Notes: a model not told the origin generated them from the sequence alone. 64,000 nt of DNA from Myxococcota bacterium (GCA_041288095.1 JBGGMJ010000158.1:1-64000); one strand, 5' to 3'; positions 11,745 to 28,243 are shown, numbered from the stretch's first letter. Program-made: numbers and translations.

Positions 11745-12644
11745 CTAGAAGCCCTCGAAAATGGCGACGCGCTTCTCGCTGCGACTGCGCGCCTGCGCGA
11801 GGCTCACGTTGACGGCGCGATAAAGGGTGCTGGCTTGCGCGATCTCCGGGTGCGGATACGTCGCCGCGGCGATCGCCAGGGACTTGCCGCGCTCGAGGCC
11901 TTCGCCAGAGAGGGCCTCGTCGACGCGCTCGATGACCCGGCGAGCACCCGCGGGCGGCGTGCCCGGCAGGAGCATCACGAACTCGGAGGCGTCGACGCGA
12001 AACACCATGTCGGCGCCGCGCAACACCTTCTCGATGGTGGTGGCGATGACCCGGAGGCGATCATCGGCGGACTCACGGCCGTTCCCGGAGAGGAGCTGCG
12101 AGAAGGTTTCGTCCGAAATGACGACGCACGAGAGCTCCTTGCCGGTGACGCGGGCGCACGTGAAGTGCGCATCGAGCGCCGCCGACAACATTCCGAACGA
12201 GCCGACTCCGGTGACCGGGTCCTTGGCGCGCATCTCGAGCAAAGTGGTCTCGGCGTCGCGCAGACCGTTTTCGAGCTTGGTGATCGATACGGCGCGCTGA
12301 ATACGCCTGCGGAGCTCGACGACGCGGAAGGGCTTCTCGACGAAGTCGATGGCACCGAGCTCGGTGCCGCGCATCTTGCCAGCGGCGTCGGCGGAGGCGG
12401 TAACGACGATGACGGCCGGCATCGGCTTGCCGTCGCCTTTGCGCAGGCGCTCGAGCACGCCGAAGCCGTCGAGCTTGGGCATGTTGAGATCGAGGAGCAC
12501 GACATCCGGTCGTTGCCGGCTCATCTGGTCGAGCGCGTCTTCACCGTCGACCGCGGACAGCACGGTCATGCCCATGCCCTGACAAAGCTCGACGACAACG
12601 TCACGCGTGGCGTCGTCATCGTCGGCTACCAACGCTACTGCCAC
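11745..12644 (-). CDS. Response regulator: receiver plus degenerate GGDEF domain
   Basis: VADDD...LLDLNMPKLDG...KPF receiver; DPVTG; RGADMVFRVDASEF in place of RxxDxxxRxGGEEF; GGAGG RBS. Confidence 0.85.
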   Translation of the reverse strand: MAVALVADDDDATRDVVVELCQGMGMTVLSAVDGEDALDQMSRQRPDVVLLDLNMPKLDGFGVLERLRKGDGKPMPAVIVVTASADAAGKMRGTELGAIDFVEKPFRVVELRRRIQRAVSITKLENGLRDAETTLLEMRAKDPVTGVGSFGMLSAALDAHFTCARVTGKELSCVVISDETFSQLLSGNGRESADDRLRVIATTIEKVLRGADMVFRVDASEFVMLLPGTPPAGARRVIERVDEALSGEGLERGKSLAIAAATYPHPEIAQASTLYRAVNVSLAQARSRSEKRVAIFEGF

Positions 12645-12789: not shown

Positions 12790-14448
12790 ATGCGGCCCTC
12801 GAGGCTCGCCACGGTACTCGTGTGCGCTGTAACGGCGGGATGCTTGGGCATTATCGACCAAGCGCCGACACAAGCGACCACATCCACCGACGAGGAGGGG
12901 CTTGCGTGCGTGGGGGCACCGGTCGATCTCGGGGCGACGCCTTTAGCGCGCCTGACGAACTTCGAATACGACAATACCGTCCGCGATCTCCTGGGCGTCG
13001 ACTTGCGCCTCGCGGCCGAGTTCACCGGTGAGCCGCGCGCTCCCGGCTTCGACTTCGACAACAACGCGACCATCCTGAGCACGCCACAACTGCTGGTGGA
13101 GCAATACGGCAACGCCGCGACCCGGATCGCCGCCGCCGCGGTCGCGAATCTGACGAGCCTCCTGCCATGTGCGCCGGCGGGCGCGGAGGCTGCTTGTGGC
13201 CGGCAGTTCGTCGACCAGCTCTTGCGCCGCGCTTTTCGCAGGCCACCCATGCCCGACGAGCGTGACCGCTATCGCGCCTTCTTCGCGGACAATCTCGCGG
13301 CCTACGACTTCGGCACCTCGGCGCGCATGTTCGTCGAGGCCGTGCTCCAGTCTCCACAATTCCTCTACCGCGAGGAGGTCGGCGACGTCGCCGGCAAGGT
13401 GGGCAGCGCCATTCCGCTGACCTCGCACGAGCTTGCCTCCCGCCTCTCCTATCTCTTGTGGCGCTCGATGCCGGATGCCGAGTTGTTCGCCGCGGCGGAC
13501 GCGAACCTCTTGTTGCAGCCGGACGCGCTCGCGAGCCAGGTCGAGCGCATGCTCGAGGATCCGCGGGTCCAGGAATCGGTCGACCACTTCCATGCCCAGT
13601 GGTTGCACCTCGAAAAGCTCGACCGCTCCGAGAAGGATGCGACGTTGCATCCAGAATTCACGAACGACCTGCGCGCTTCGATGCGCGAGGAGACCCTGCG
13701 GTTCACCCGCGCGGTCTGGCAAAACGGAGGCAGCCTCGACGAGCTGCTGACCGGCGACTTCACTTTCGTCGACGATCGCTTGCGTGAGCATTACGGAATG
13801 TCCCCGCGCAATCCCGGAAGCGCGCTCTGGCAACGTGTTCCATTGGGGAGCACGTCGCGAGGAGGGGTGCTCACGCAAGCATCAATCTTGTCGCTCACCG
13901 CGCACGCGGGCGACACGTTTCCGACGAACCGGGGCAAGCTCGTGCGCGAGCAGCTCTTGTGCATGCCGATGGCTCCGCCTCCGCCCGGGGTCAGCGCCGA
14001 CCTCGGCGCCGTGCCCGCCGACTTGCCGGTCCGCGAGAAGCTCGTGCGCCACGCGACCGACGGGAGCTGCGCGAGTTGCCACCGCCTCATGGATCCCATC
14101 GGCTTCGGCTTCGAGGGCTTCGGGCCGACCGGCGCCGAGCGCACCCAGGACCGCTGGGGCAATCCCGTTGAGACGCACGGCGAGCTCATCGGCACCGGCG
14201 ACATCGACGGCACCTTCGCGAATCCCAAGGAGCTCGCGGGACTCCTGGCATCGAGCACGCAGACGCAGGAGTGCGCGGTCATCCAGATGTTCCAGTTCGG
14301 CTACGGCCGCCGCGTGACGCGCGCCGACGGGTGCACGGTGAAATCGCTGCGCGACCAGTTCGCCGCGAGCGGCGGCAGCCTGCGCGAGCTGGTCACGGCG
14401 CTGACGACGACGCATGCGTTCCGCTATCGCGTACCCGTGAAGGAGTAG
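12790..14448 (+). CDS. DUF1592/DUF1588-family exported protein with C-terminal CxxCH
   Basis: Lipobox-like TAGC, RLTNFEYDNTVRDLLG, LQSPQFLYR, ELASRLSYLLW.SMPD, CASCH..MDPIGFGFE. Confidence 0.88.
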   Translation: MRPSRLATVLVCAVTAGCLGIIDQAPTQATTSTDEEGLACVGAPVDLGATPLARLTNFEYDNTVRDLLGVDLRLAAEFTGEPRAPGFDFDNNATILSTPQLLVEQYGNAATRIAAAAVANLTSLLPCAPAGAEAACGRQFVDQLLRRAFRRPPMPDERDRYRAFFADNLAAYDFGTSARMFVEAVLQSPQFLYREEVGDVAGKVGSAIPLTSHELASRLSYLLWRSMPDAELFAAADANLLLQPDALASQVERMLEDPRVQESVDHFHAQWLHLEKLDRSEKDATLHPEFTNDLRASMREETLRFTRAVWQNGGSLDELLTGDFTFVDDRLREHYGMSPRNPGSALWQRVPLGSTSRGGVLTQASILSLTAHAGDTFPTNRGKLVREQLLCMPMAPPPPGVSADLGAVPADLPVREKLVRHATDGSCASCHRLMDPIGFGFEGFGPTGAERTQDRWGNPVETHGELIGTGDIDGTFANPKELAGLLASSTQTQECAVIQMFQFGYGRRVTRADGCTVKSLRDQFAASGGSLRELVTALTTTHAFRYRVPVKE

Positions 14449-14451
14449 ACG

Positions 14452-15822
14452 ATGAAGACCAGGATTGACCGCCGCACCTTGTTGCGTGGCCTCGGTGGCG
14501 CGGCCATCGCCCTGCCCTTCCTGGAATCGATGACGCCTGGGTCGGCGTCCGCTCAGACGGCGACGGCGCCACGCCGCGTGCTCGTGGTCTTTTCGCCGAG
14601 CGGCACCCTGCGCAACGAGTGGATCGCGAGTGGTGGGCTCAGCGACTTCACGTTCGGGCCACTGCTCGCGCCGCTGAACGATCACAAGGACAAGATCATC
14701 GTCATGCAGGGCCTGGTGATGGGCACCATTCCCTCGACGCCCGTCGGCGATGGTCACACCAAGAACTTCGGCGCCATGCTCACCGGCGGTCGCCTCACCT
14801 CCAACAACGGCGCCTGGGACTTCGCCGACCGCGCCTCATTCGACCAGCTGATGGCGCAGGACCCGAACATCGGCGGCAAGACGCGCTTTCGCTCCCTCGA
14901 GCTGTCGTCGGGGCGCGACGGCAACGACCTCTGGAACCGCATGATCTACGCGGGCCCGAAGCAGCCGGTGGCGCCACGCCGCAAGCCGGACGAAGTCTTC
15001 GACCTCTTGTTCTCCGACTTCACGCCGGAGACGGGAGCGGCGCCGGACCCAGCGGCCGAGGCACGACGTCTGCAAAAGCGGTCAGTGCTGGACTTCGTGG
15101 GCGGCGAATACACGCGTTTGAAGTCACGTATCTCGGCGCAAGATCACTACGTCGTCGACCAGCACTTCACGGCGATCCGCGAGCTCGAGCAGCGCGTCGC
15201 CGGCGCCGCGGAGCAGCAGCAACAAACGTCGTCGTGCACGGTACCGGCGCGGCCGGCGACCCATGCATCCGACTATTACGGCAGCGACGCGGCGTACCCC
15301 GAGATGGTGAAGCTCCACATGGACCTCACGGTACGAGCCCTCGCCTGTGACTTGACGCGCATCGCCTCGCTGCAGCTATCGGCCTGCTCGAGCGGCACGC
15401 GCTTCACGTGGCTCGGCGTGACCGAGGAGCACCACACGCTGTCGCACGATCAACACGGCGATCCCAACGTGGCGCGGCCGAAGTATCGCCAGACCCAGGT
15501 CTGGTACGCCCAGCAGATCGCCTACCTGCTGGCCGAGATGCGGAAGATCGACGAAGGAAACGGCAAGTCGCTGCTCGACAACACGGCGGTGCTTTGGTGC
15601 ACCGAAGTGAACCACGGCAACGATCACAGCTACCACGACATGTCGTGGCTGCTTGCCGGGAGCTGCGGCGGCGCCTTCCAGACCGGCCGCAACCTGCAGT
15701 ACGCGCCCTACGGGACCAACTACACGCAGGACCTGCTCACCTCGCTGATGCAAGCGATGGGCTCTAGCGTCGCGAAGCTCGGCGACCCAGCGTTCTGCAA
15801 CGGGCCCCTCGCCGGCCTCTAG
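14452..15822 (+). CDS. DUF1552-family Tat-type protein
   Basis: RRTLLRGLGGAAIALPFLESM, SFDQ, SVLD, HFTAIRELE, ALACDLTR, HTLSH; 3 nt after its usual DUF1592 partner. Confidence 0.88.
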   Translation: MKTRIDRRTLLRGLGGAAIALPFLESMTPGSASAQTATAPRRVLVVFSPSGTLRNEWIASGGLSDFTFGPLLAPLNDHKDKIIVMQGLVMGTIPSTPVGDGHTKNFGAMLTGGRLTSNNGAWDFADRASFDQLMAQDPNIGGKTRFRSLELSSGRDGNDLWNRMIYAGPKQPVAPRRKPDEVFDLLFSDFTPETGAAPDPAAEARRLQKRSVLDFVGGEYTRLKSRISAQDHYVVDQHFTAIRELEQRVAGAAEQQQQTSSCTVPARPATHASDYYGSDAAYPEMVKLHMDLTVRALACDLTRIASLQLSACSSGTRFTWLGVTEEHHTLSHDQHGDPNVARPKYRQTQVWYAQQIAYLLAEMRKIDEGNGKSLLDNTAVLWCTEVNHGNDHSYHDMSWLLAGSCGGAFQTGRNLQYAPYGTNYTQDLLTSLMQAMGSSVAKLGDPAFCNGPLAGL

Positions 15823-17168
15823 TCGTCCTTCGCCAGATTCTCGAACTTCGTATACTCGTTGAAGAAGCGAAGTCTCACCGTGCCCGTCGGCCCATTACGC
15901 TGCTTGCCGATGATGAACTCCGCGACACCTTTATCTGGTGACGCTGGGTTGTAGTACTCATCGCGGTACACGAAGCAGATCACGTCCGCGTCTTGCTCGA
16001 TAGCGCCCGACTCGCGAAGGTCCGAGAGCATTGGCCGCTTGTCCTGCCTCTGCTCGAGCGAGCGGTTCAGCTGCGACAACGCGATAACGGGCACCTTGAG
16101 CTCTTTACCGAGCGCCTTGAGGCCGCGGGAGATTTCGCTGATCTCGCGCTCGCGGCCTTCGTTCGAGGTGCGGCCGCGCATGAGCTGCAGGTAGTCGACC
16201 ATGATGAGTCCCAGCCCGCGCTCGGCTTGGAGGCGCCGCGCCTTGGCGCGCATCTCGAGGACGCTGATCGCTCCGGTATCGTCGAGGTACATGGGCGCTT
16301 CAGCGAGAGCGCCGGCCGCGCGCGCGAGCTTCGGCCAATCGGTCGAGTTCAAGAAGCCGCCGCGCATGCGCTGGCTGTCGATACGCGCCTCGGAGCAAAG
16401 CATACGCATGACGAGCGCCTCCTTGCTCATTTCGAGCGAGAAGACGAGCGCCGGCACCTTCTGATGAACGGCCGCGTACTGGGCGATGTTGAGCGCCACC
16501 GCCGTCTTTCCCATGGAAGGACGGCCGGCGATGATGATGAGGTCGGACGGCTGGAAGCCGGCGGTCATCTTGTCGAGGTCCTGGAAGCCGGTGGGCACCC
16601 CGGTGACCAGCTCCTTGCGCTCGTAGAGCTTCTCGATGGTCTTGAAAGCGTCTTTGACGACGTCTTTGAGCGGCGTGTAGCTGCGGTGCTCGCGGGCGCT
16701 GGTGATCTCGAAGATCTTGGCTTCGGCTTGGTCGAGCAGGATGTCGACCGTCTCGCCGCCTTGATAACCCGAGGTCGCGATCATGGTCGCCGCCGCGATC
16801 AAGCGTCGGGACAGAGCCGCGTCGCGAACGATGCGCGCGTAGTGGATGGCGTTCGCCGCCGTCGGCGTGAGCTCGGTGAGGTGCGCGATGTACTCGCTAC
16901 CGCCGACTCCGTCGATCTTGCCCTGGCCGCGTAGGTCGTAGCAGACGGTGACCTCGTCGATGGGCTCGTTGCGCTCGAAGAGGCGCAGAACTGCCTCGTA
17001 GATGGCGGCGTGCGCGGGCCGATAGAAGTCCTCGGGCTTGAGCAGCTCGATGCATTCGCTGACGGCCGCGCGCTCGAGCAGCATGGCGCCCAAGACGCTA
17101 CGTTCGGCGTCGACGTCTTGGGGGGGCAATTTGCCCTGGGGGCGCTGAGGGGAGGCGTCGGCCAACAT
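15819..17168 (-). CDS. dnaB: Replicative DNA helicase
   Basis: AERSVLG, AGRPSMGKT, FSLEMS, VDYLQL, ALSQLNR, SDLRESGAIEQDAD, KQRNGPTG; no intein. Confidence 0.98.
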   Translation of the reverse strand: MLADASPQRPQGKLPPQDVDAERSVLGAMLLERAAVSECIELLKPEDFYRPAHAAIYEAVLRLFERNEPIDEVTVCYDLRGQGKIDGVGGSEYIAHLTELTPTAANAIHYARIVRDAALSRRLIAAATMIATSGYQGGETVDILLDQAEAKIFEITSAREHRSYTPLKDVVKDAFKTIEKLYERKELVTGVPTGFQDLDKMTAGFQPSDLIIIAGRPSMGKTAVALNIAQYAAVHQKVPALVFSLEMSKEALVMRMLCSEARIDSQRMRGGFLNSTDWPKLARAAGALAEAPMYLDDTGAISVLEMRAKARRLQAERGLGLIMVDYLQLMRGRTSNEGREREISEISRGLKALGKELKVPVIALSQLNRSLEQRQDKRPMLSDLRESGAIEQDADVICFVYRDEYYNPASPDKGVAEFIIGKQRNGPTGTVRLRFFNEYTKFENLAKDD

Positions 17169-17258
17169 CGGTCACTTCGTGCAAACGAGGGAAACAGACT
17201 ATGCCAGATCGACTTCTGGAAATGCACGCTGATCTCTGTTGCGGCCCCCCTTGGCATG

Positions 17259-17264
17259 TATACT
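17259..17264 (+). promoter_or_regulatory. Candidate -10 hexamer TATACT 6 nt before the GTG start of the kinase gene (possible leaderless transcript)
   Basis: TATACT-ggggtc-GTG; pattern match only. Confidence 0.3.
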
Positions 17265-17270
17265 GGGGTC

Positions 17271-18947
17271 GTGAGCCTACGCCTTCAGGTGATGGTCTTG
17301 GTCGCCGTGCTGGTGGCAATAAGTGTCGCCGCCATCAGTGGCATTCTGATCGCGCGTTTCCAGACGGACATGCAGCGTGAGATGACGGGCTGGTCCGAGG
17401 TGATCCGCGCCGACTTGATCGATCGCGGCAAAGCCGTGGCGACGAACGCAGCCATGTCGGCCTCCGAAGCGATCGACTCGCGTGACTTCTTGTTCCTGGC
17501 CGCGCTGGTGAAGACCGCGACGACCCAGGATCCCGACATCGAGTACGGCTTCCTCGCCGACAAGAACGGCCGCATCCTGGTGCACAGCACGCCGCAGGAG
17601 ACCGGGAAAATCCTGAAGGTCGAGGAGTACAAGGAAGCCGTCACCTCCGGCTCGGCCCAGCCGCGTGACACGGTCGTCGAAGGCAAGCCCACCATCGAAG
17701 TGGTGGCGCCGATCACCGTCGGCAACTTCCTCTGGGGCACGATGCACTTCGGCCTCTCGCTCGCTAAGCTCGATCAAGCGCAGCAGCAAAGCCGCGCGGT
17801 CATCTCGACGCGCATGAAACAGGGCATTACCGCGACCGCCATCGGTGGCGGCGTGGTCCTCGTGCTGGGCGCGCTACTCGGAGCTTTCGCGGCGACACGC
17901 ATCTCGGCGCCGCTCAAGCGCTTGAGCGAAGACATCGATCGCATCCGCAGTGGTGATCGTCAGCACTTGGTGCGCGCCGGTGGCTGCCGCGAGTTCGCGC
18001 TCTTCGGCATGGGCATCAACGAGCTCACGAACCAGAACCAGCAATCGGAACAATCGCTGAAGAAGAACATCGAAACGCTGGGCAGCGCTCTCGACGAAGC
18101 GCAAAACGCCTCGCGCTCACGCGACCAGTTCCTCGCCAACGTCTCGCACGAGCTGTCGACGCCGCTGAACGCCATCCTCACCGTGCCGCGCTCGCTGCTC
18201 GATGACTATCGCATGATGAAGGTCTGGCACTGCGGCAACTGCGGCTCGGTCTTCGAAGTCGAAGGCAAGGCGAGCGGCGCCCAGCAGTGCCCCGACTGCC
18301 ACATCCCCTTGAAGCTCGAGGATCGCCATATCTTCACCGGCGATCCCAACGAGCATTTCCACTTCATGGGGCGCGTGCGCCAGGCGACGAACCACATGAA
18401 GCGCATCATCCAGGCCTTCGTCGACTACTCGAAGCTCAAGGGCGCGCGCATGGTCGCGAGGCGCGAGCAGGTGCGCGTCGCCGACCTGGTCGCCGACGTC
18501 CGCGACATCATCGGCCCGCTCGCCGAAGAGAAGAAGGTCAAGCTCGAGCTGCCCAACATCGACCCCAGCATCGTCATCGATGCGGATCGCACGATGTTGT
18601 CGCAGATCCTGGTGAACCTCGTGGGCAACGCCGTGAAGTTCACCCCCGCCAGCGGCACGGCGACGCTCGAGATCGGCGGCCGCAACGGCATGCTGTCGTT
18701 CCGCGTCCGCGACACCGGCGTCGGCATCCCCCGCGAGGAGCTCGACAACATCTTCCGCGCCTTCTACCAGGTCGATGGCTCGCACACGCGCGCCTTCGGC
18801 GGCACGGGCTTGGGCCTTGCCATCGCCCGTGAGATGGTCGAGCTGCATCAAGGCCGTGTTTGGGCCGAGAGCGAAGGTCGAGGCAAAGGTAGCGTGTTCA
18901 CCTTCGAGTTTCCGGGTACGGCCGCCAAGGCCGCGAGGGCCTCATAG
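17271..18947 (+). CDS. Membrane sensor histidine kinase (TM - Cache-like - TM - HAMP - HisKA with Zn-ribbon insert - HATPase); start at 17256 or 17271
   Basis: Two TM segments; H-box FLANVSHELSTPLNAI; N-box QILVNLVGNAVKFT; G1 DTGVGI; F-box IFRAFYQ; G2 GTGLGLAI; CGNC-x15-CPDC insert. Confidence 0.93.
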   Translation: MSLRLQVMVLVAVLVAISVAAISGILIARFQTDMQREMTGWSEVIRADLIDRGKAVATNAAMSASEAIDSRDFLFLAALVKTATTQDPDIEYGFLADKNGRILVHSTPQETGKILKVEEYKEAVTSGSAQPRDTVVEGKPTIEVVAPITVGNFLWGTMHFGLSLAKLDQAQQQSRAVISTRMKQGITATAIGGGVVLVLGALLGAFAATRISAPLKRLSEDIDRIRSGDRQHLVRAGGCREFALFGMGINELTNQNQQSEQSLKKNIETLGSALDEAQNASRSRDQFLANVSHELSTPLNAILTVPRSLLDDYRMMKVWHCGNCGSVFEVEGKASGAQQCPDCHIPLKLEDRHIFTGDPNEHFHFMGRVRQATNHMKRIIQAFVDYSKLKGARMVARREQVRVADLVADVRDIIGPLAEEKKVKLELPNIDPSIVIDADRTMLSQILVNLVGNAVKFTPASGTATLEIGGRNGMLSFRVRDTGVGIPREELDNIFRAFYQVDGSHTRAFGGTGLGLAIAREMVELHQGRVWAESEGRGKGSVFTFEFPGTAAKAARAS

Positions 18948-18949
18948 CG

Positions 18950-20659
18950 ATGGCGCGAGCGCCGCAGCTTCGTCTACGAACTCAGTTCTTCCTGGTCGTG
19001 CTCCTGCTCGTCGGCATCGCCGGCGCGGCAATCACGGCGTTCTTCGTCCGCATGCATCAGGCGGCTCTCGCCGATGTCACGGAAAAGAAAGTCGCGATGA
19101 TCCGCGCCGACCTAGGCGACAAGGCCGCGACCCTCGCCCGCAACGGCGCGGTTAGCTCGGCGCGCTCCGCCGTGATGATGGACTTCACGTTGCTGCAAAA
19201 CGTGATCGGCGCGACCGTGCAGGCCGACCGCAGCATCAAGTCGGCGCTGATCGCCGACGCCTCGGGCAAGATCGTCGTTCACAGCGATCCCTCCAAGGTC
19301 GGTCGCCGCGTCACCGGTGACGCGTTGCCCAACGCCGGCAAGGACCTCACCGTGCGCGAGGTCGTCGACGACAACGGCGTGCCCTCGCTCGAGGCCATTG
19401 CTCCCATCCACGTTGGTGGCGACGTCTGGGGCAGCGTCCGCTATACCGTATCGCTCATCCCCTGTTTGATCGCGACCGAGAACAGCAAGACCGAGCAAAG
19501 CGCGGTTGCGCGCCGAGCCATCATCTTCGCGGGCGGCGTGGGCCTCGTGCTCCTGCTCATCAGCGTCGTCGCCACCGCGCTCGCGGCGAAACCCGTCGTG
19601 CGTCCCGTCTCGCTGCTCGAGGACGCCGTGCAGCGCGTGCTCGCGGGCCAGCAGAACGTGCACGTCGACATCGAGAACCCGCCCGACATCGCCCGGGTCG
19701 GCCGCACCTTCAACGACATGATCGAGGCGATCGGCAACCGCACGAAGCTGCTGCGCCAGGACCGCCGCCGAGTCGAAATCGCGCTCGAAGAAGCCCAGCA
19801 GATCTCCAAGACCAAAGAGGTCTTCCTGGCGCGCGTCTGGCAAGACCTGCTCAACCCGCTGCAGCGCATCGAGCAGGACGGCCAGACCATGCTCAAGAGC
19901 TTCTCGGGCACCGAGGGCTTGGTTTGCGCCTCGTGCAAGACCGCCTTCGAAGCCGCCGACGGCACCGCCGCGGTCGGCAAGCCCTGCCCACGCTGCGGCG
20001 GCAAGCTCGGCAAGAGCACCGTCATGCAGCTCGTCGGCGACGCCGAGGTCGTGCAGAAATCGCTGCGGGACGTCGAGACCCGCGGCACCGAGCTACGCCG
20101 CCTCGTCGGCGAGATCCTCGAGTTCTCCGCGCTCGAGGCCGACCAGAAGAAGCTCAATCTCGAGCAGCTCGAAGTGCCCAAGCTGATCGAAGCGGCCAAG
20201 GTGAGCATGACCGTCATGGCCGAGGGCAAGAAGCTCATCTGGCCCACCAAACCGCCGGCGGTGGGACTCGAAGGCGATCGCATCCGCATCGAGCAGGGCG
20301 TCACGCTCGCCGTCGAGCTGGTCTGCCAGATCTCGCCGCAGCCCTCCGACGTACGCCTCGAGGTCGACGAAGTGACTTACCACGGCGAGCCCGGCATTCA
20401 GTTCGTCGTGCGCGACGCGGGCTCCGGCTTCGCCAAGGAGTTCCTCGACGCCCTGCGCAGCGGCGCCGGTCCTGACGCCCGCGCGACCCTGTCGATGATG
20501 GCCTTACGCCGCGTCGCGGACCTCCACCACGGCGAGCTCTCCATCGAGAGCGACGTTGGCCGCGGCGTCACCGTCCGGCTCATCTTGCCCCGTGGCCAAC
20601 CGCAAGTGCAGCCCCGCCCGGCCCCGCGCCGACGCCAGGCTGAAGGTACAGCTTCGTAA
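18950..20659 (+). CDS. Pseudo-histidine kinase, paralogous architecture with the same Zn-ribbon insert
   Basis: Same TM-Cache-TM-HAMP layout; H-box is FLARVWQDLLNPL (His replaced by Gln); N-box Asn residues absent; DAGSGF retained; G2 box lost; CASC-x16-CPRC. Confidence 0.85.
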   Translation: MARAPQLRLRTQFFLVVLLLVGIAGAAITAFFVRMHQAALADVTEKKVAMIRADLGDKAATLARNGAVSSARSAVMMDFTLLQNVIGATVQADRSIKSALIADASGKIVVHSDPSKVGRRVTGDALPNAGKDLTVREVVDDNGVPSLEAIAPIHVGGDVWGSVRYTVSLIPCLIATENSKTEQSAVARRAIIFAGGVGLVLLLISVVATALAAKPVVRPVSLLEDAVQRVLAGQQNVHVDIENPPDIARVGRTFNDMIEAIGNRTKLLRQDRRRVEIALEEAQQISKTKEVFLARVWQDLLNPLQRIEQDGQTMLKSFSGTEGLVCASCKTAFEAADGTAAVGKPCPRCGGKLGKSTVMQLVGDAEVVQKSLRDVETRGTELRRLVGEILEFSALEADQKKLNLEQLEVPKLIEAAKVSMTVMAEGKKLIWPTKPPAVGLEGDRIRIEQGVTLAVELVCQISPQPSDVRLEVDEVTYHGEPGIQFVVRDAGSGFAKEFLDALRSGAGPDARATLSMMALRRVADLHHGELSIESDVGRGVTVRLILPRGQPQVQPRPAPRRRQAEGTAS

Positions 20660-20729
20660 ATCTTGAGCGGCGGCGCCTTTGCGTCTATTCAAGAGCCGGC
20701 AGCCGCAGCACCCCCGACACCGTTGAGCC

Positions 20730-22985
20730 ATGAAGGAGCTCATGCGCTTCTCACTTTTGACGGTCCTCGCTATCGCGTTGACTTCGACAACCGCCTCGGC
20801 TGTCGAGCCCGAATCACCGTTCAAGCAACAACAGGCACTCGATACGCCACCACCACCCGCTGGTGGGTCGGCGCAGCTGAAGAACGTCTTCCGCTTGCTC
20901 GGTGAAGAAGCCGAGATCAAGACGGCGGTCGCCACCAAGGTCGCGCAGAGACAGATCGACGCGCCCGCGGTCATCGAGGTCATAACCTCGCAGCAACTCC
21001 AGGCCGCCGGCTACACGTCGGTCGCGGAGGCGCTCGAGCGTATCCCTGGCCTCGCTCTCAACTCCGACCTCGTCTACTCGAACGTCGGCGTTCGCGGCAC
21101 CAGCGGCGGTCTGCGCAGCGGCGCCCGCCACCTCAAGGTGCTGATCGACGGCCAGCCGGTCGCGTTCCGCCCGGACGCGCAGAACTTCCTCGGCCAAGAG
21201 CTCATCCCCATCAGCGTCATCGACCGCATCGAAGTCCTGCGCGGCCCGGCGTCGGCTCTCTACGGTCTCAACGCCTTCCTCGGCGTCGTGAACATCGTCA
21301 CCAAGCAAGCCGCGGCTCCGGCCGACGGCACCCACGTGCCCGGCGAATACGCTGTCCTCGGTCGCGGCTATGCGGTCAACTCCAACTGGGGCGCCGGTGG
21401 CGAGGCCCTCCTCGTCGACCGCTATGGCGGTCTCGCGGTCACCTTGGCGGCGCACTACAGCTACATCGATCGCTCGGGTCTCACCCTGCCGTCGCGTGGC
21501 CCGGCCGTCTCGGACTACTCGCTCACCGAAGAGAGCCGCGACGATATCTCGCGTCCGGCGTCGGCGTTCGCGTCGTTCGGCTACGACACCGGCAGCTTCG
21601 GCAAGTTCACCCTGACCGCCAACTATCAGCAGCTCGATAACGTCGGTGAGTTCGTCGACTACGGCGCCTTGAGCCACGGCACGCGCATCAACCTGAACAA
21701 CTGGTTCGTGCGTCTGCGCCACGAGCTCGAGCTCGACATACTCCGACTGACCACCTACGCCGCCTACTCCGGCGGTGGGCCGATGGGCAACGACGTCATC
21801 CAGCCGGTGGTCAACGGTCTGCCGCTCTCGTATCGCATCGAGCGCGACTTCGGCTATCGCGCCATCGACGTCGGAACCGAAGCGTCGGTGCCCTTGCTCA
21901 CCCAGAGCGTGGTGCTCGCCGGCGCCGAGTTCACCAACGACCAGGAAAGCATCCGTACCAACAGCTTCGTCTCGAACACGACCGGCGTCCGCCTCGATGG
22001 CGGCAGCCCCGGGACCCAGAACTTCAACAACATCGCCGGTTACGCGCAGGCTCTGTGGCGCGAGCTCGAGTGGCTCCAGTTGGCGGCCAACATCCGCTAC
22101 GACCACAGCAACCAGTTCGGCTCGAACATCAACTATCGTGGTGGCGCGGTCATCGCGGTCGGCGACGACCTGCGCATCAAGCTGCTCTCCGGCTCCTCCT
22201 ACCGCGGTCCGACGCCCGAGCAGCTCTACGGCACCCCGCTCGCGCCAGGCGACGTTCAGGGCTCGCTCTCGGCGGTCAATCCGCGCCAGCTCGACCCGCA
22301 GACGGCGTTGACGCAGGAGATCTCGATCAATCACGAGCTCCACGCCGACCAGACGACTTTGCGCAGCCAGCTCAACGGCTACTACACGAGCATCAAGAAC
22401 CGCATCGAGTTTCTCCGTGAAGCCGGTCAGCTGCGCCCGACCAACAGCGCCACGTCGAAGACCTGGGGCGGCGAGCTGTCGCTCTCGTGGATCCAGAATC
22501 AGATCGCCGACGTGCTCTCACTGCAGCTCTCGGGCTCGGTATCGTTCGCGGACACCACCATCGACGCCAACGCCAACGTCTTGACGGACCGCGAAATCGA
22601 GCGCCTCACCATCAACGAGCTCTATCCCAAGTGGATGTACAAGGGCTTCGCGACGCTCCAGGCGCCGACGCTGCACTTGCGCCTCTACGGCCAGATCATC
22701 GCCTACGGTGAGCGTCTGCAATCGCAGATCAACCAGACCTACAATCGCCCGTTGGTCGGCGAGCCGGCTTACACCCTGCCCGCCTCCTACCCGGTCGACC
22801 TCACGCTTTCGACGATGGGCCTGAGCATCATCGAGGGCACGGTCGACAGCGCGGAGTACGAGACGGTGCTGTCGGTGAGCGTCCGCGACGTGTTCAACTC
22901 GCAGTCGCCGGAGCCGGGCTTCAACGGCATCAACCTGCCGCCGCTCGGCCGCCGCTACTACATCACGCTGCGCCAGCAGTTCTAG
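20730..22985 (+). CDS. TonB-dependent outer-membrane receptor
   Basis: Signal peptide; plug motifs APAVIEVIT...AEALERIPG and IDRIEVLRGPASALYG.NA..GVVNIVTK; C-terminal Phe. Confidence 0.93.
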   Translation: MKELMRFSLLTVLAIALTSTTASAVEPESPFKQQQALDTPPPPAGGSAQLKNVFRLLGEEAEIKTAVATKVAQRQIDAPAVIEVITSQQLQAAGYTSVAEALERIPGLALNSDLVYSNVGVRGTSGGLRSGARHLKVLIDGQPVAFRPDAQNFLGQELIPISVIDRIEVLRGPASALYGLNAFLGVVNIVTKQAAAPADGTHVPGEYAVLGRGYAVNSNWGAGGEALLVDRYGGLAVTLAAHYSYIDRSGLTLPSRGPAVSDYSLTEESRDDISRPASAFASFGYDTGSFGKFTLTANYQQLDNVGEFVDYGALSHGTRINLNNWFVRLRHELELDILRLTTYAAYSGGGPMGNDVIQPVVNGLPLSYRIERDFGYRAIDVGTEASVPLLTQSVVLAGAEFTNDQESIRTNSFVSNTTGVRLDGGSPGTQNFNNIAGYAQALWRELEWLQLAANIRYDHSNQFGSNINYRGGAVIAVGDDLRIKLLSGSSYRGPTPEQLYGTPLAPGDVQGSLSAVNPRQLDPQTALTQEISINHELHADQTTLRSQLNGYYTSIKNRIEFLREAGQLRPTNSATSKTWGGELSLSWIQNQIADVLSLQLSGSVSFADTTIDANANVLTDREIERLTINELYPKWMYKGFATLQAPTLHLRLYGQIIAYGERLQSQINQTYNRPLVGEPAYTLPASYPVDLTLSTMGLSIIEGTVDSAEYETVLSVSVRDVFNSQSPEPGFNGINLPPLGRRYYITLRQQF

Positions 22986-25147
22986 GCGATATCGATCAGG
23001 ACCAGGGTCATGTCGTCCCCCTGCGGCACGTCGCGGGGGTGGACGGCATCGACGCTGCGCATGATACCGCGCAGGGCTTCGTCCAAGGGCAGGTTACGGC
23101 TGTCGCTCAAGAACTTGCGCATCGAGCGCACGCCGAGCTCCTGTCCGCTCGCCGTGTGAAACTCGTAGAGACCGTCGGTGAAGCACATGAGGCGCGAGCC
23201 CGGATGAACCGAGACCTCGGCACGTCCGACCGTGAACGTCTCCGTGGGCAGCCCGAGCGGTGTGCCACGCGTGACCGCCGCCGAGACCTTGCCTTCGGCG
23301 TTCATGGCGAGGATGTGCGGCGCGGCGGCGCTGTAGATGTGCGCGGTGCTGCCCTGCTTCGGGATCTCGAGGATGGCCATGGTCATGTGGTAGTCGCCGT
23401 GCGCCATGCCCCAGAGCTCGTTGTGGAGGAGCTGGAGCAGGTCGACGGCGCCTATGTGCGGCGAGAGCGTGCGCGCCAATCGGGTTGCACTGGCGATCGA
23501 TCCGGTGACCATCGCGGAACCTGCACCATGGCCGGAGACGTCGCCGATGAAGACACGGACGCGCTCTTCGTCTTGATCGTGCCACCACCAGTCGCCACCA
23601 CAGTCGTCGGCGGCGCGGTAGAAGGCGGCGAGCTGGACGCGGTCCCTGCGAACGAGCGTATCGCGCGGCAGCAACATCGTCTGGACGGCGGCAATGAGCG
23701 CCAGGTCCTTCTTGTGGGACGCCGCGAGGATGTCGTTGGCGCTCGCCAACCGGTCCGCGAGGCCGCGCTTTTCGGCGAGCAGCGCTTCCGATGTGCTCTC
23801 AAGCTCGCGATAGGCGCGCGCCAGCACGGCGAGCGGCGGTGTCGCCGACCCGATCCAGGTCTTATAGGGCGTCTGCGCGGGCAGCTCGGTGTCGGTGGTC
23901 TCGCCCAGCAGACGGACGCGGTCGGGTAGCTCTTCGAGCAGGGCCTCGACGTCCTTGCTCATGAGGCCGAGCGCCTTGCCCGTGGCCATGGCGGCGGCGT
24001 TGTTGGCGACGATGTCCCCGGTCTCGAACACCGCGGCCAGACGCTCGGCGGCCCAAGCGACGCGCGCCAGAGCATCGCCGGGCACCTCACGCTCGTGATG
24101 GCTCTGGACCGCCACGATCATGTCTTCATCGAGGTTCCAGGCTTGGGCGACCTCGAGGATGCGCTCGGGGTGCTCGATCTCGTTGCCGACGTGCTCACGC
24201 TGTAGGCGCGACGCCGCCGGAGCCATGCCGATCTCGAGAGCGCCCGCCGGGTCGTGGATGGCGCGGATCAACAGGCCGGCATCGAGCAGGAAGCCCGTGG
24301 CCGTGGCGCGCTCGACGTCGACGACCGCGGTGCGCGTGGCGATGAGGTGACAAGCGATGGCGCGGCGGTAGACCAGCGCCGTCAGATAGCCGCTCATGTC
24401 GCTACGTCGGTGCACGAGGTCGAGCACGGTGGCGGCGACAGCGGCGGCATCCACACCCTGCTTGCCGAGGGTCCCGAGCAAGGCGCCCACGTCGCTCGCG
24501 TAGCCGCGCGGCGCGAACAAGCCGGCTTCGGCGAGCGACTTGAGATGCGCGTGGAACCGCGGATTGTCGGTGAGCAAGCGAGCGACGCCGCTCACCTGCG
24601 ACGACTTCTGCGGACCAGCGATGGTGTTGCTCGACGCCCCGAACGCCAAAGCGGACAAGGCCATCGACAGCTCACCGAAGTTCACCGGCTTGGTGAGCAT
24701 GCGGTTGCCGCCCTGGGCGATGAGCTCGTTCTCGGTGTAGCGCGCGCTGTAGCCGGTCACGAAGATGATGGGCAGGTCACGCCGGACCGGCACCTGCTTG
24801 GCATAGGGCGGCAGCTTGCTCGTATCCAGGGCGCCGCGCACCAGCTTGGTCAGGTCGATGCCGGAGAGCCGCGAGCCTTGCAGCTCGATGTCCATGAGCA
24901 CGGCCGCGAATTGCCGTGACTCGTCGCTGAGAGCCTTGCACGCCTCCTCGTCGTTGCGCGCCCACACGAGATCGAAGCGCCGCCGCAGCTGCAGCTCGGT
25001 GACCTCCCAGTTGTCGCGGTTATCCTCGATATAGAGGAGCGTCGCGCGTTCCGCGGTAGCGGCCAAGTGGGCCGGCCGCCCCGCAGTGCCGGCGGACCCG
25101 CCGCCGCCCAAACGTCGTAAGCCAGTCCGACCAATCTCCCGCATCAA
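22982..25147 (-). CDS. REC - HDOD-like - coiled coil - SpoIIE/PP2C phosphatase
   Basis: YIEDN...LMDIEL...TKP receiver; GFLLDAG...AWNL...VQSHH HDOD-like region; QTMLLP, GGDW, GDVSGHG, FTDGL, DDMT phosphatase motifs. Confidence 0.88.
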   Translation of the reverse strand: MMREIGRTGLRRLGGGGSAGTAGRPAHLAATAERATLLYIEDNRDNWEVTELQLRRRFDLVWARNDEEACKALSDESRQFAAVLMDIELQGSRLSGIDLTKLVRGALDTSKLPPYAKQVPVRRDLPIIFVTGYSARYTENELIAQGGNRMLTKPVNFGELSMALSALAFGASSNTIAGPQKSSQVSGVARLLTDNPRFHAHLKSLAEAGLFAPRGYASDVGALLGTLGKQGVDAAAVAATVLDLVHRRSDMSGYLTALVYRRAIACHLIATRTAVVDVERATATGFLLDAGLLIRAIHDPAGALEIGMAPAASRLQREHVGNEIEHPERILEVAQAWNLDEDMIVAVQSHHEREVPGDALARVAWAAERLAAVFETGDIVANNAAAMATGKALGLMSKDVEALLEELPDRVRLLGETTDTELPAQTPYKTWIGSATPPLAVLARAYRELESTSEALLAEKRGLADRLASANDILAASHKKDLALIAAVQTMLLPRDTLVRRDRVQLAAFYRAADDCGGDWWWHDQDEERVRVFIGDVSGHGAGSAMVTGSIASATRLARTLSPHIGAVDLLQLLHNELWGMAHGDYHMTMAILEIPKQGSTAHIYSAAAPHILAMNAEGKVSAAVTRGTPLGLPTETFTVGRAEVSVHPGSRLMCFTDGLYEFHTASGQELGVRSMRKFLSDSRNLPLDEALRGIMRSVDAVHPRDVPQGDDMTLVLIDIA

Positions 25148-26148
25148 GCGCTCGTGCTGCGCGGCGTCTCGATGCGGCTGCGACGCTGATACTCCTGCAG
25201 AGCTCTCTGGTAAGCGACGTCTTCTTGGCTGCAGAGCGCGCCGTATGCGAGCCGCCAGTTGTACAGAAACAGCCGCAGGTCATGCTGGAACTCGGACCGG
25301 TATGCTTCGCCGACGTCGCCATCGAAGTTGACGACGATGCCCGCCTCGACAGCCTGCAAGGCCGGTGAGCGCCGGGTGTCACCGAAGATGCTGCGCCAGC
25401 CCCGCTTCATCGCGGCGCCGAGGCCCTTCTCGAGCGGCTGGCCGAGCACGCGCACCTGCACCGGGTAGGCGTATTCGCCGGGCTTCAAGCCAATCTCGGT
25501 GCCGGAGTGCAGGCGGTCGTAGCCGTTGTCTTGGCGCGCGCGCGTCAACGCTGCTCGCAAGCGCTCCGAGAGCTCGGCGTCGAGGTCGACGTTCGAGAAG
25601 AACGTCAGCTTCGCGGCGAACTTGTACTCGAGGTGCTTCAAGCTGCTGCGCATGACCGCCTCGAGATCCGTCTTCGAGGACAGCTTCTGGAAGCAGGCCG
25701 CGAAGCCCTCGAGCTGGCCCTTGAGCGCCACGAGAGTGCGGATATCCTGCGAGGCACGCAGCGCCGCGCGGATGACCGCATAGAGACGATCGGGCGTGGC
25801 GTCGGGCTTGGCCAAGTAGCTGTCGATGTCGTATTCGTTGAGGACCTTGTCCTCGGGCGCGACACCGGGCTGACCCGTACGAAGGACGATGCGCAGCGAC
25901 CGCTCGCAGACGCGGCGCAGGACGCGGCACAAGTTCAGGCCGGCGTCGTCGCTCTCCATGATGACGTCGACGAGAGCTACGTCGAAGACATCGGGTTTGT
26001 CCTTGACGATCTCTTCGGCCTCTTTGGCGCTCTTCGCACTCGTGATCGTGAATTTCCGACCGCGCCAATGCTTATGCTTCAGCGCCAGCTCGGTGATGGT
26101 GTGAACGTCGGGCTCATCGTCGACTACCAGAACGTGCCAATTGTGCAC
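25144..26148 (-). CDS. Response regulator: receiver domain plus uncharacterised C-terminal domain
   Basis: VLVVDDEPDVH, LVDVIMESDDAGL, IVLRTGQPG.APE; GGAG RBS before GTG 26148; 4-nt overlap with the phosphatase gene. Confidence 0.85.
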   Translation of the reverse strand: MHNWHVLVVDDEPDVHTITELALKHKHWRGRKFTITSAKSAKEAEEIVKDKPDVFDVALVDVIMESDDAGLNLCRVLRRVCERSLRIVLRTGQPGVAPEDKVLNEYDIDSYLAKPDATPDRLYAVIRAALRASQDIRTLVALKGQLEGFAACFQKLSSKTDLEAVMRSSLKHLEYKFAAKLTFFSNVDLDAELSERLRAALTRARQDNGYDRLHSGTEIGLKPGEYAYPVQVRVLGQPLEKGLGAAMKRGWRSIFGDTRRSPALQAVEAGIVVNFDGDVGEAYRSEFQHDLRLFLYNWRLAYGALCSQEDVAYQRALQEYQRRSRIETPRSTSA

Positions 26149-28150: not shown

Positions 28151-28243
28151 TAGGGAGCTCATGTGGTCGGTGACCCCAGAAATAGCGTTGATTCGGTTTA
28201 GCATTCGTTGGACTGGGGTGCTAGCATCGCATCAACCCCTCGC

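Follow-up and report, generated by a model that had tools for sequence, protein, structure and literature searches.

A histidine kinase and its pseudokinase paralogue with a four-cysteine ribbon in the DHp hairpin, and a predicted cognate receiver family in Myxococcota

The stretch of DNA analyzed here (the window; 64,000 nucleotides from a Myxococcota bacterium) contains two consecutive genes on the plus strand, which encode related sensor proteins. Gene 1 (17271-18947, plus strand) codes for the histidine kinase P0001 of 558 amino acids, composed of a transmembrane segment, an sCache_3_2 domain, a second transmembrane segment, HAMP, a DHp domain with a ribbon insert and HATPase_c, and gene 2 (18950-20659, plus strand) codes for the paralogue P0002 of 569 amino acids with a P0001-like architecture. 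The junction reads TAG (18945-18947), CG and ATG (18950), so that the genes are separated by 2 nt, which upholds the spacing given in an earlier note on this DNA. An in-frame ATG at 17256 represents an alternative start of gene 1, and the close relative P0004 starts with MYTGVV at the matching position. A promoter scan of the region 17000-25400 returned 0 promoter-like sites, and 8 terminator-like sites were observed in this region compared with 4.6 expected.

Analysis of P0001 with Pfam revealed HATPase_c (102.7 bits), sCache_3_2 (39.1 bits) and HisKA (34.4 bits, cut-off 26.9), and the HisKA match covers only profile positions 2-23, N-terminal to the insert, because the insert interrupts it. 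The H, N, G1, F and G2 boxes were all found (alignment A1), which provides both the H-box and the ATP-binding boxes of a HisKA-type sensor kinase (PF00512 and PF02518). The predicted phospho-accepting residue is His293 within SHELSTPL (codon 18147-18149, plus strand), which aligns with the H-box of HK853, and a histidine occupies this position in 108 of 108 active family members. Judged by its sequence, P0001 is an intact membrane sensor kinase that is predicted to work. None of the curated NCBIfam models reached its cut-off, whether with the kinases, with the DHp-ribbon segment or with the receiver described below.

P0002 is 26% identical to P0001 over 552 columns (E 1e-48) and reads VWQDLLNPL in the H-box region, where P0001 has VSHELSTPL; the phospho-accepting histidine is thus replaced by glutamine. 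The DHp segment of P0002 lacks any histidine, as it does in three of the four members of its clade, and the HisKA score of 11.7 bits (cut-off 26.9) places P0002 outside the H-box definition. Furthermore, the Asn residues of the N-box, the F box and the G2 box are gone and D-x-G-x-G is retained (alignment A1). The HATPase_c score of 33.3 bits (cut-off 26.4) points to a HATPase fold, yet the protein is probably not an ATPase. The same losses were found in the relatives P0008, P0009 and P0010 (67, 45 and 39% identity), all of which retain the four cysteines. The absence of the histidine and of the N, F and G2 boxes bears out the proposal that gene 2 encodes a degenerate kinase. In addition, the docking residues in helix 1 of P0002 deviate from those of the family (QDLLNPLQRIEQDG versus HELSTPLNAILTVP).

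Both proteins carry the motif CxxC-x15/16-CxxC, which extends from C321 to C343 in P0001 (18231-18299, plus strand; all four cysteines are invariant in the alignments) and from C326 to C349 in P0002 (19925-19996, plus strand), exactly at the positions noted before. The ribbon peptides quoted in the earlier note run a few residues beyond these intervals. The best match of P0001 in the PDB, by sequence (E 4e-33) as well as by structure (TM by target about 0.8, with 271-277 alignment columns for 233-238 target residues of the HK853 chains), is HK853 of Thermotoga maritima, which together with RR468 forms the reference HisKA kinase-receiver complex (PDB 2c2a, 3dge). P0001 shares with HK853 the H, N, G1, F and G2 boxes and the DHp-CA arrangement. 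A phmmer comparison aligned residues 8-44 of HK853 (2c2a_A) with residues 272-308 of P0001 and residues 60-246 with 365-548, and between these aligned parts of the DHp helices HK853 has 15 residues, whereas P0001 has 56 including the Cys4 ribbon. The difference amounts to about 41 residues inserted between the DHp helices, net, and confirms the suggested location of the ribbon in the DHp hairpin.

The AF2 model of P0001 (mean pLDDT 82) shows a helix at 240-310, strands at 313-320 and 348-355 and a helix at 359-390, and from this secondary structure and the alignment to HK853 we delimit the insert at the DHp tip to residues 311-358 (18201-18344, plus strand). In detail, the first strand is followed by the knuckle C321/C324, a variable loop, the knuckle C340/C343 and the second strand. 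The block means of pLDDT over residues 311-360 are 88, 86, 72, 88 and 86. The model is metal-free, its strands flank both cysteine knuckles, and the insert is modelled as a two-stranded beta stalk carrying the two knuckles.

Comparison with known ribbons gave a weak resemblance only. Zn_ribbon_8 (PF09723, FmdB-type) scored 18.5 bits for P0001 and 15.1 bits for P0002 (E 0.0021 and 0.023) against a cut-off of 34.4, RUBY_RBDX scored 10.6 bits against 26.5, and an E value of 1e-4 with Zn_ribbon_8 was reached by 2 of 82 family members and by 1 of the 26 long ones. The original assignment to an FmdB/rubredoxin-like ribbon is thus reduced to a weak resemblance. The ribbons of the window have in common with Zn_ribbon_8 the two-knuckle pattern CxxC...CPxCG, the aromatic and acidic residues that follow the first knuckle as a pair, and a proline after the third cysteine. 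The span from the first to the last cysteine is merely 23-24 residues in P0001 and P0002. Ribbons of the FmdB type occur as small proteins on their own or at protein termini and are not known as inserts of a helical hairpin. Neither the sequence nor the structure search of the PDB returned a solved chain covering the insert of P0001, the literature searched contained no description of a ribbon kinase family, and a Protein Atlas search with residues 270-400 returned generic HisKA clusters only, with nothing on the ribbon. This is in line with the statement that no characterized kinase of this architecture is known.

Downstream of the pair lies a gene for a TonB-dependent receptor (Plug and beta-barrel by Pfam; 20730-22985, plus strand), followed in convergent orientation to the kinases by a gene for a 721-residue protein with a receiver, HDOD and SpoIIE/PP2C domain by Pfam (22982-25147, minus strand), which has no operon in common with the kinases. 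The receiver scored 32.2 bits with Response_reg (PF00072, cut-off 30.2). The AF2 model of the REC fragment (24623-25072; pLDDT 91.8) has the (beta-alpha)5 fold, and its Foldseek matches are receivers. The model contains a helix at 71-79, a short helix at 89-93 and a strand at 102-106, with block means of 96 for residues 81-100 and 92 for 101-110; residues 80-101 (24770-24835, minus strand) form an insert between helix 3 and strand 4. A structured insert of about 20 residues at this position characterizes a whole receiver family. In an alignment of 33 sequences E16/D17, D61, T106 and K128 are invariant, P88 of the insert is nearly invariant, G80 is conserved, and the insert is net positive in 25 of the 33. 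RsbY of Bacillus cereus is a receiver-PP2C response regulator of a partner-switching pathway. The REC-HDOD-PP2C protein resembles RsbY-type regulators in the combination of REC with a SpoIIE/PP2C phosphatase domain, but differs in the HDOD domain in the middle and the family-specific receiver insert, and no STAS or anti-sigma genes were seen near it.

The kinase, the pseudokinase and the REC-HDOD-PP2C protein occur together in the source genome G000, in G002, where the orthologue of the latter is located beside the pair, and in G011, where it is about 6.4 kb away. A gene for a fused periplasmic binding protein (ABC_sub_bind and Phosphonate-bd by Pfam; 26228-28204, minus strand) is also present in the window, and in G011 the same fusion (L094:6036-8027) immediately precedes the orthologous kinase. 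It is possible that this protein belongs to the same sensory neighbourhood. Paralogues of the TonB receptor (30-33% identity) are encoded near the ribbon-kinase loci L095, L096 and L097 and were absent near L093 and L094.

The family comparison used 150 representatives chosen as best matches to P0002, so that the following conservation figures describe a non-neutral sample: the ribbon is present in 113 of the 155 proteins of the collection, the distance from the histidine position to the first cysteine is exactly 28 residues in 112 of these 113, a proline directly follows the third cysteine in 102, and none of the four cysteines varies in the alignments, which comprise 34, 82 and 113 sequences. 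The observation that all four cysteines are kept in both genes therefore extends to every relative examined. The ribbon was not kept independently in two diverging paralogues, but is an inherited trait of the subfamily (113 of 155 proteins). We also rejected the idea of the pair as an oddity of a recent duplication, as the ribbon is older than the duplication, and chance or misannotation is ruled out because the cysteines are invariant and their spacing is fixed.

The ribbon occurs behind a broad range of input domains: sCache_3_2 (29), HAMP (31) and 7TMR-DISM_7TM (16) among 82 ribbon kinases, and Pkinase (6), AAA_16 (7), GAF (7) and Reg_prop (4) among 26 long ones. This suggests that it is built into the transmitter module of this subfamily, irrespective of the sensor domain. 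Helix 1 of the DHp domain is nearly uniform at three positions among the 108 active members, with Asn at H+7 in 106, Asn at H+11 in 100 and Pro at H+13 in all 108; the P0001 clade deviates at H+11 (T/S/A) and pairs with a distinct receiver subtype. The loop between the knuckles is net negative in 95% of the 108 active members, with a mean of -3.8. Within the phylum, seven or more families have conserved the additions in kinase and receiver. The kinases represent a large, undescribed subfamily of histidine kinases. A profile search of genome contigs with the DHp-ribbon alignment (80 loci retained) mainly detected the generic H-box pattern: L013 and L014 were the only loci matched across the ribbon, and most of the others matched query residues 1-24 to 1-41 only.

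Several lines of genomic evidence connect the ribbon kinases with the insert-type receivers. In the source genome, which has two active ribbon kinases, 2 of 48 H-box matches carry the ribbon, and an HMM of the insert-type receiver gave exactly two strong matches (237 and 211 bits, the next at 39), each adjoining a ribbon-kinase locus; the REC-HDOD-PP2C protein of the window is the 211-bit match, and the other insert-type receiver is located at G000:C69:9178-9585. Among 401 genomes of the phylum both components were detected in 33, the ribbon only in 1, the receiver only in 16 and neither in 351, a table that overstates independence because the genomes are related. The 16 genomes with a receiver and no detected ribbon have to be seen against a census in which 10-11 candidates were scored per genome and many contigs are short. 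An insert-type receiver is located within 2 kb of 35 of 71 ribbon matches and within 10 kb of 44, and for the remaining 27 none was found within 10 kb, subject to the same limits of the census. At the fetched loci the receiver gene is usually downstream of the kinase on the same strand. Furthermore, an insert-type receiver is fused to the C-terminus of 2 of the 113 ribbon kinases (P0061, 149 bits; P0083, 126 bits). Linkage, co-occurrence and fusion thus all point to ribbon kinases and insert-type receivers as a predicted cognate pair, and the idea of a partner-selection module gains indirect support from a co-occurring, co-located and occasionally fused receiver with an insert of its own. About one third of the ribbon kinases scanned are hybrid kinases with a Response_reg match (25 of 82 and 14 of 26), and apart from P0061 and P0083 none of the attached receivers exceeds 20 bits with the insert-receiver model. 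As these hybrids still retain the ribbon, docking of the insert-type receiver cannot be its sole purpose.

The anatomy, conservation and kinase-receiver linkage are direct observations; zinc binding, a contact between ribbon and receiver and any interaction of P0001 with P0002 are inferred. The reading we favour, with confidence somewhat short of even, is that the locus encodes a two-component module of the undescribed subfamily, in which the ribbon is a zinc-stabilized extension of the receiver-docking surface and P0002 modulates P0001. In both proteins a Cys4 ribbon, probably with bound zinc, takes the place of the short connector between the DHp helices and would jut on its beta stalk from that end of the four-helix bundle which is farther from the membrane. 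The subfamily would signal to a dedicated receiver family, the one distinguished by the insert that follows helix 3. A stimulus at the periplasmic sCache domain or domains may lead to autophosphorylation of P0001 at His293 and to transfer of the phosphoryl group to Asp61 of the REC fragment, and phosphorylation of the REC-HDOD-PP2C protein (22982-25147, minus strand) would then control its protein phosphatase output. The acidic loop of the ribbon would face the basic insert of the receiver and in this way insulate the channel from the other kinases of the cell, and P0002 may act as a non-phosphorylating second sensor that modulates P0001 through mixed dimers or competition. A complex prediction in which residues 262-400 of P0001, in two copies, were combined with two zinc ions and the window receiver, run without controls, gave a score of 0.00 and speaks neither for nor against binding.

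The strongest competitor, less likely in our estimate, is that the zinc-stabilized Cys4 cap simply clamps the DHp helices together and neither binds a partner nor senses anything. Small Cys4 ribbons are mostly structural, and the cap might perhaps also set the handedness of the hairpin and thereby the choice between cis and trans autophosphorylation, which is known to depend on the DHp loop. The invariance of the cysteines and of the spacing from the histidine across sensor domains is in favour of such a clamp, and so is the ribbon in a pseudokinase with diverged docking residues, as expected of an element essential for the fold. Retention in P0002 fits a requirement of the fold, and hence a purely structural role, and is no sign of a regulatory role. 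A purely structural cap leaves unexplained, however, why the kinase subfamily travels with a receiver family bearing a conserved insert and why the loop between the knuckles is acidic in 95% of the members.

It is considerably less probable that the ribbon serves as a cytoplasmic redox or metal input, in which the ribbon unfolds when its thiolates are oxidized or its metal is lost or exchanged, and thereby shifts the kinase/phosphatase balance or receiver docking, as a second input shared by all members. Four thiolates are located in the cytoplasm beside the catalytic helix, CxxCG...CPxC also resembles rubredoxin knuckles (a weak Pfam match), and zinc-thiolate redox switches occur in other regulators, for example in zinc-binding anti-sigma factors. 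On the other hand, the rubredoxin-type matches are far below their cut-offs, no redox-related genes were consistently found near the ribbon-kinase loci examined, and an identical module stands behind many unrelated sensors. Slightly less probable still is the option that the ribbons mediate contacts between kinases, in mixed dimers or higher-order assemblies in which P0002 gates P0001: the two adjacent genes (2-nt gap) stay together in G000, G002 and G011, and there are published precedents in FasB/FasC of group A Streptococcus, a mixed pair with FasC as proposed pseudokinase (PMC12675982), and in RetS, which heterodimerizes with GacS in Pseudomonas aeruginosa (PMC12189002). Most ribbon kinases, however, have no pseudokinase neighbour, which rules out such contacts as the purpose of the ribbon in general. 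Only four pseudokinase clusters were found among the library representatives, and a metagenome scan for pseudokinase relatives gave 6 weak, partial loci (26-37% identity), none spanning the DHp domain, and no further pair.

P0002 itself resembles DivL (Caulobacter, PDB 4q20), RetS and FasC in having a DHp-CA fold without normal autokinase chemistry and in being encoded with, or acting on, an active kinase as partner; the PDB searches with P0001 also returned chains of DivL and RetS. P0002 differs from these three proteins in the complete loss of the histidine (Gln) and of the N, F and G2 boxes, and it possesses the ribbon, which DivL, RetS, GacS, FasB and FasC all lack. The kinase/pseudokinase pair is also a natural case for studying the effect of a dead histidine kinase on a live one.

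Returning to the ribbon as a docking extension, the subfamily has two matched additions, the putative metal ribbon of the kinase and the structured insert of the receiver. Where a cell has dozens to hundreds of two-component systems, their insulation is currently explained by a handful of residues in DHp helix 1 and receiver helix 1. As the specificity code of helix 1 seems frozen at H+7, H+11 and H+13 in the ribbon kinases, discrimination between paralogues might have shifted to a second, modular interface between the acidic zinc-ribbon loop and the basic structured receiver insert, a proposal that is speculative and in our view unlikely. If it is true, it would be a new way to insulate two-component pathways, and the thiolate-bound metal could also make docking sensitive to redox state or metal. 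If the two additions touch, they would provide a second docking interface, one that might be transferred to synthetic pathways in order to insulate them. Should the ribbon be labile to redox state or metal, kinases with very different sensors would share one cytoplasmic input. Members of the subfamily were found in the complete single-contig genomes G247 (9.0 Mb) and G227 (9.4 Mb), and therefore genetics should be feasible.

The active sensor histidine kinase P0001 (17271-18947, + strand, 558 aa after translation) and its paralogue, the pseudokinase P0002 (18950-20659, + strand, 569 aa), are encoded on the same strand in a window with a G+C content of ~63-70% and are separated by only 2 nt (TAG-CG-ATG). 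Both proteins align over their full length with 26% identity (E 1e-48) and share the Pfam domains sCache_3_2, HAMP (weak in P0001) and HATPase_c. HisKA exceeded the cut-off in P0001 only, and there it covered just profile positions 2-23. In a search of solved structures the reference HisKA kinase HK853 aligned to P0001 in two blocks (272-308 and 365-548), with 56 intervening residues in P0001 versus 15 in HK853. This gap contains the CxxC-x15-CxxC ribbon of P0001 (C321, C324, C340 and C343; 18231-18299, + strand), and P0002 has a CxxC-x16-CxxC ribbon from C326 to C349 (19925-19996, + strand) at the matching position. In P0002, Gln replaces the phospho-accepting His, the DHp is devoid of any His, and the N-box asparagines, F box and G2 box are lost, with DxGxG being retained. 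Translation, Pfam, the HK853 alignment and these box losses confirmed the earlier note, which had described a kinase/pseudokinase pair with zinc ribbons in the DHp hairpin, including its coordinates.

In the AlphaFold2 model of P0001 (34-sequence alignment, mean pLDDT 82), DHp helix 1 ends at residue 310 and DHp helix 2 starts at residue 359. The insert in between consists of a strand (313-320), the first knuckle, a short strand (327-329), a variable loop, the second knuckle and a further strand (348-355), with the variable loop as the lower-confidence part (block mean pLDDT 72). Because of this order of elements, the insert is modelled as a two-stranded stalk that extends from the hairpin tip and bears the two knuckles of the ribbon. 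HK853 chains top the Foldseek matches of this model (TM by target ~0.8), with ~40 alignment columns beyond the target residues, and no solved structure among the matches listed covers the insert. As Zn_ribbon_8 and rubredoxin-type Pfam models matched far below their cut-offs, the term zinc ribbon describes the structure and assigns no family, and the metal is putative.

The ribbon is a family trait found behind many sensors and no peculiarity of the pair. A HMMER search with P0002 against 1.84 billion cluster representatives provided the best 150 matches, which as top hits to one query are not a census and which together with a few further proteins form a set of 155 proteins. In 113 of these, an H-box or its degenerate form is followed by the ribbon. 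The spacing from the His position to the first Cys is 28 residues in 112 of the 113, the third Cys is followed by Pro in 102 and the first knuckle by Phe or Tyr in 111, and the inter-knuckle loop varies from 13 to 30 residues. Only the four Cys and one Pro are invariant columns in alignments of 82 and 113 sequences. According to Pfam, the shorter ribbon kinases (n=82) carry sCache_3_2 (29), HAMP (31), 7TMR-DISM_7TM (16) and a C-terminal receiver (25), and the longer ones (n=26) Pkinase (6), AAA_16 (7), GAF (7), Reg_prop (4) and a receiver (14). The 1433-aa protein P0040 has two complete 7TMR-DISM kinase modules in tandem; a script picked up a ribbon near residue 494 of the first module, and the second has its four Cys at 1198-1222 according to alignment A6.

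Using a profile of the DHp-ribbon segment, we found matches in at least 34 genomes, in seven families, among a sample of 401 genomes of the window's phylum, with counts that are lower bounds because 11 candidates were scored per genome (at least 2/3 in f1, 1/1 in f2, 3/6 in f6, 1/4 in f9, 2/2 in f13, 21/172 in f17 and 3/11 in f23). At the same depth of 11 candidates per genome there was no match in f10 (0/18), f12 (0/20), f16 (0/21), f21 (0/67) and f30 (0/17). The genome of the window has 48 H-box matches, two of them with a ribbon, namely the kinase of the window and C69:7046-8707; its third ribbon gene is the pseudokinase P0002.

Downstream of the pair, Pfam identified a REC-HDOD-SpoIIE/PP2C protein (22982-25147, - strand). 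A tblastn search of the window's proteins against paralogous loci revealed close relatives of its REC domain directly downstream of other ribbon kinases: at C69 of the same genome (41% identity), at G003:C152 and at G025:C104. The G025 locus has a second copy with a Ser/Thr protein kinase domain fused at its N-terminus (L097:10410-11840, - strand), ~2 kb away from a ribbon kinase for which a separate single-domain receiver is present as well. LYVED..NWE is common to the receivers, as is an extra segment that separates helix 3 from strand 4; in the AlphaFold2 model (receiver domain pLDDT 91.8) this segment is confidently placed at residues 80-101 and partly helical. The solved structures closest to the insert-type receiver model m6e98c690de7d include eukaryotic and fungal hybrid-kinase receivers that bind Hpt four-helix bundles (4euk_A, Sln1 and Chaetomium hybrid kinases), which rank ahead of RR468.

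An HMM of the insert-type receiver gave exactly two strong matches in the genome of the window (237 and 211 bits; next 39), and each ribbon-kinase locus is adjoined by one of them. In the 401-genome sample the receiver profile matched in 49 genomes; ribbon and receiver occur together in 33, the ribbon alone in one, the receiver alone in 16 and neither in 351, a table whose nominal significance overstates the evidence because the genomes are related. The stronger point is the physical linkage in seven families: the distance from ribbon match to receiver is up to 2 kb in 35/71, up to 5 kb in 41/71 and up to 10 kb in 44/71 cases, and for 36/88 receiver matches a ribbon lies no more than 2 kb away. 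The receiver gene is usually located 3' of the kinase on the same strand in 27 inspected loci (L013 among them), which were picked for closeness of both matches and are not an independent count. Two of the 113 ribbon kinases, P0061 (149 bits) and P0083 (126 bits), carry the insert-type receiver fused to their C-terminus; the remaining hybrids have an ordinary receiver (at most 20 bits against the insert-type model). These ordinary receivers share a conserved LPKPW motif. Our conclusion is a predicted cognate partnership between ribbon kinases and insert-type receivers, which makes the REC-HDOD-PP2C protein the predicted partner of the window's pair.

On the kinase side, the helix-1 stretch H-6 to H+13 hardly varies among the 108 active members: 106 have N at H+7, 100 have N at H+11 and all 108 have P at H+13. 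Positions that normally vary to set partner specificity fall within this stretch. The exception at H+11 is the clade of P0001, whose partner is the REC-HDOD-PP2C subtype. The loop between the knuckles carries a net negative charge in 95% of the 108 active members (mean -3.8), and 25 of 33 receiver sequences have a net positive insert. In the HK853-RR468 complex the receiver is docked against the lower DHp half and its helix 1 points to the hairpin tip, so that a stalk from this tip could meet the insert on the underside of the receiver. As a whole, a cognate pairing in which the ribbon stalk meets the receiver insert is our preferred but tentative reading, at slightly below even chances, and the contact itself is the less probable part of it. 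The main competing explanation is a staple of purely structural function, which might set the handedness of the hairpin; it accounts just as well for the ribbon being kept in hybrids and in the pseudokinase. Since the ribbon belongs to the transmitter core irrespective of the sensor, a signal-specific role is disfavoured. Other possible roles are those of a redox or metal switch and of a kinase-kinase contact.

P0002 has few relatives that share its losses among the best 150 matches (P0008, P0009 and P0010 with 67%, 45% and 39% identity), and all of them keep the four Cys. Kinase, pseudokinase and REC-HDOD-PP2C occur together in three genomes, namely that of the window, G002 of the same genus, with the receiver gene immediately next to that of the pseudokinase, and G011 of another family in the same order, where ~6.4 kb lie in between; a metagenome scan found no further kinase/pseudokinase examples. 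The helix-1 surface of P0002 is unlike the almost invariant one of the family, and judged from its sequence P0002 probably does not dock a receiver in the usual way. Precedents for a divergent or dead kinase acting on a live one are FasC with FasB (PMC12675982) and RetS with GacS (PMC12189002).

Both proteins fall into the HisKA/HATPase_c kinase superfamily, in the case of P0002 by fold only. The predicted mode of action is like that of an ordinary two-component system with PP2C output; what sets the proteins apart is the matched inserts of kinase and receiver. Such matched inserts are not described in Pfam, NCBIfam or PDB, nor did we find a description in the full-text literature outside subscription journals and supplements; where zinc ribbons come up in PMC5847659, the context is a different one.

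A 658-aa fused periplasmic binding protein (ABC_sub_bind and Phosphonate-bd) is encoded at 26228-28204 (- strand), ~1 kb past the receiver gene. The same fusion lies directly upstream of the orthologous kinase in G011 (L094:6036-8027), and the C69 paralogue is preceded by a single Phosphonate-bd protein (L095:5219-6058). The window also has a TonB-dependent receptor at 20730-22985 (+ strand). The binding proteins and TonB-dependent receptors nearby suggest that the sCache kinases are part of a sensory cassette linked to uptake. Receptor paralogues with 30-33% identity are found near four of six compared ribbon-kinase loci (the window, L095 at 438-2597, L096 and L097) and not near L093 or L094. 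Further upstream in the window are a REC-GGDEF response regulator with an ordinary receiver (11745-12644, - strand), ~5 kb from the kinase pair, and a gene pair of a DUF1592-type multi-domain protein (PSD2-5, PSCyt3; 12790-15822, + strand) followed by a DUF1552 (HXXSHH) protein. At the C69 ribbon-kinase locus, a DksA/TraR-type C4 zinc-finger gene (L095:9722-10141, + strand) is located directly 3' of the single-domain receiver.
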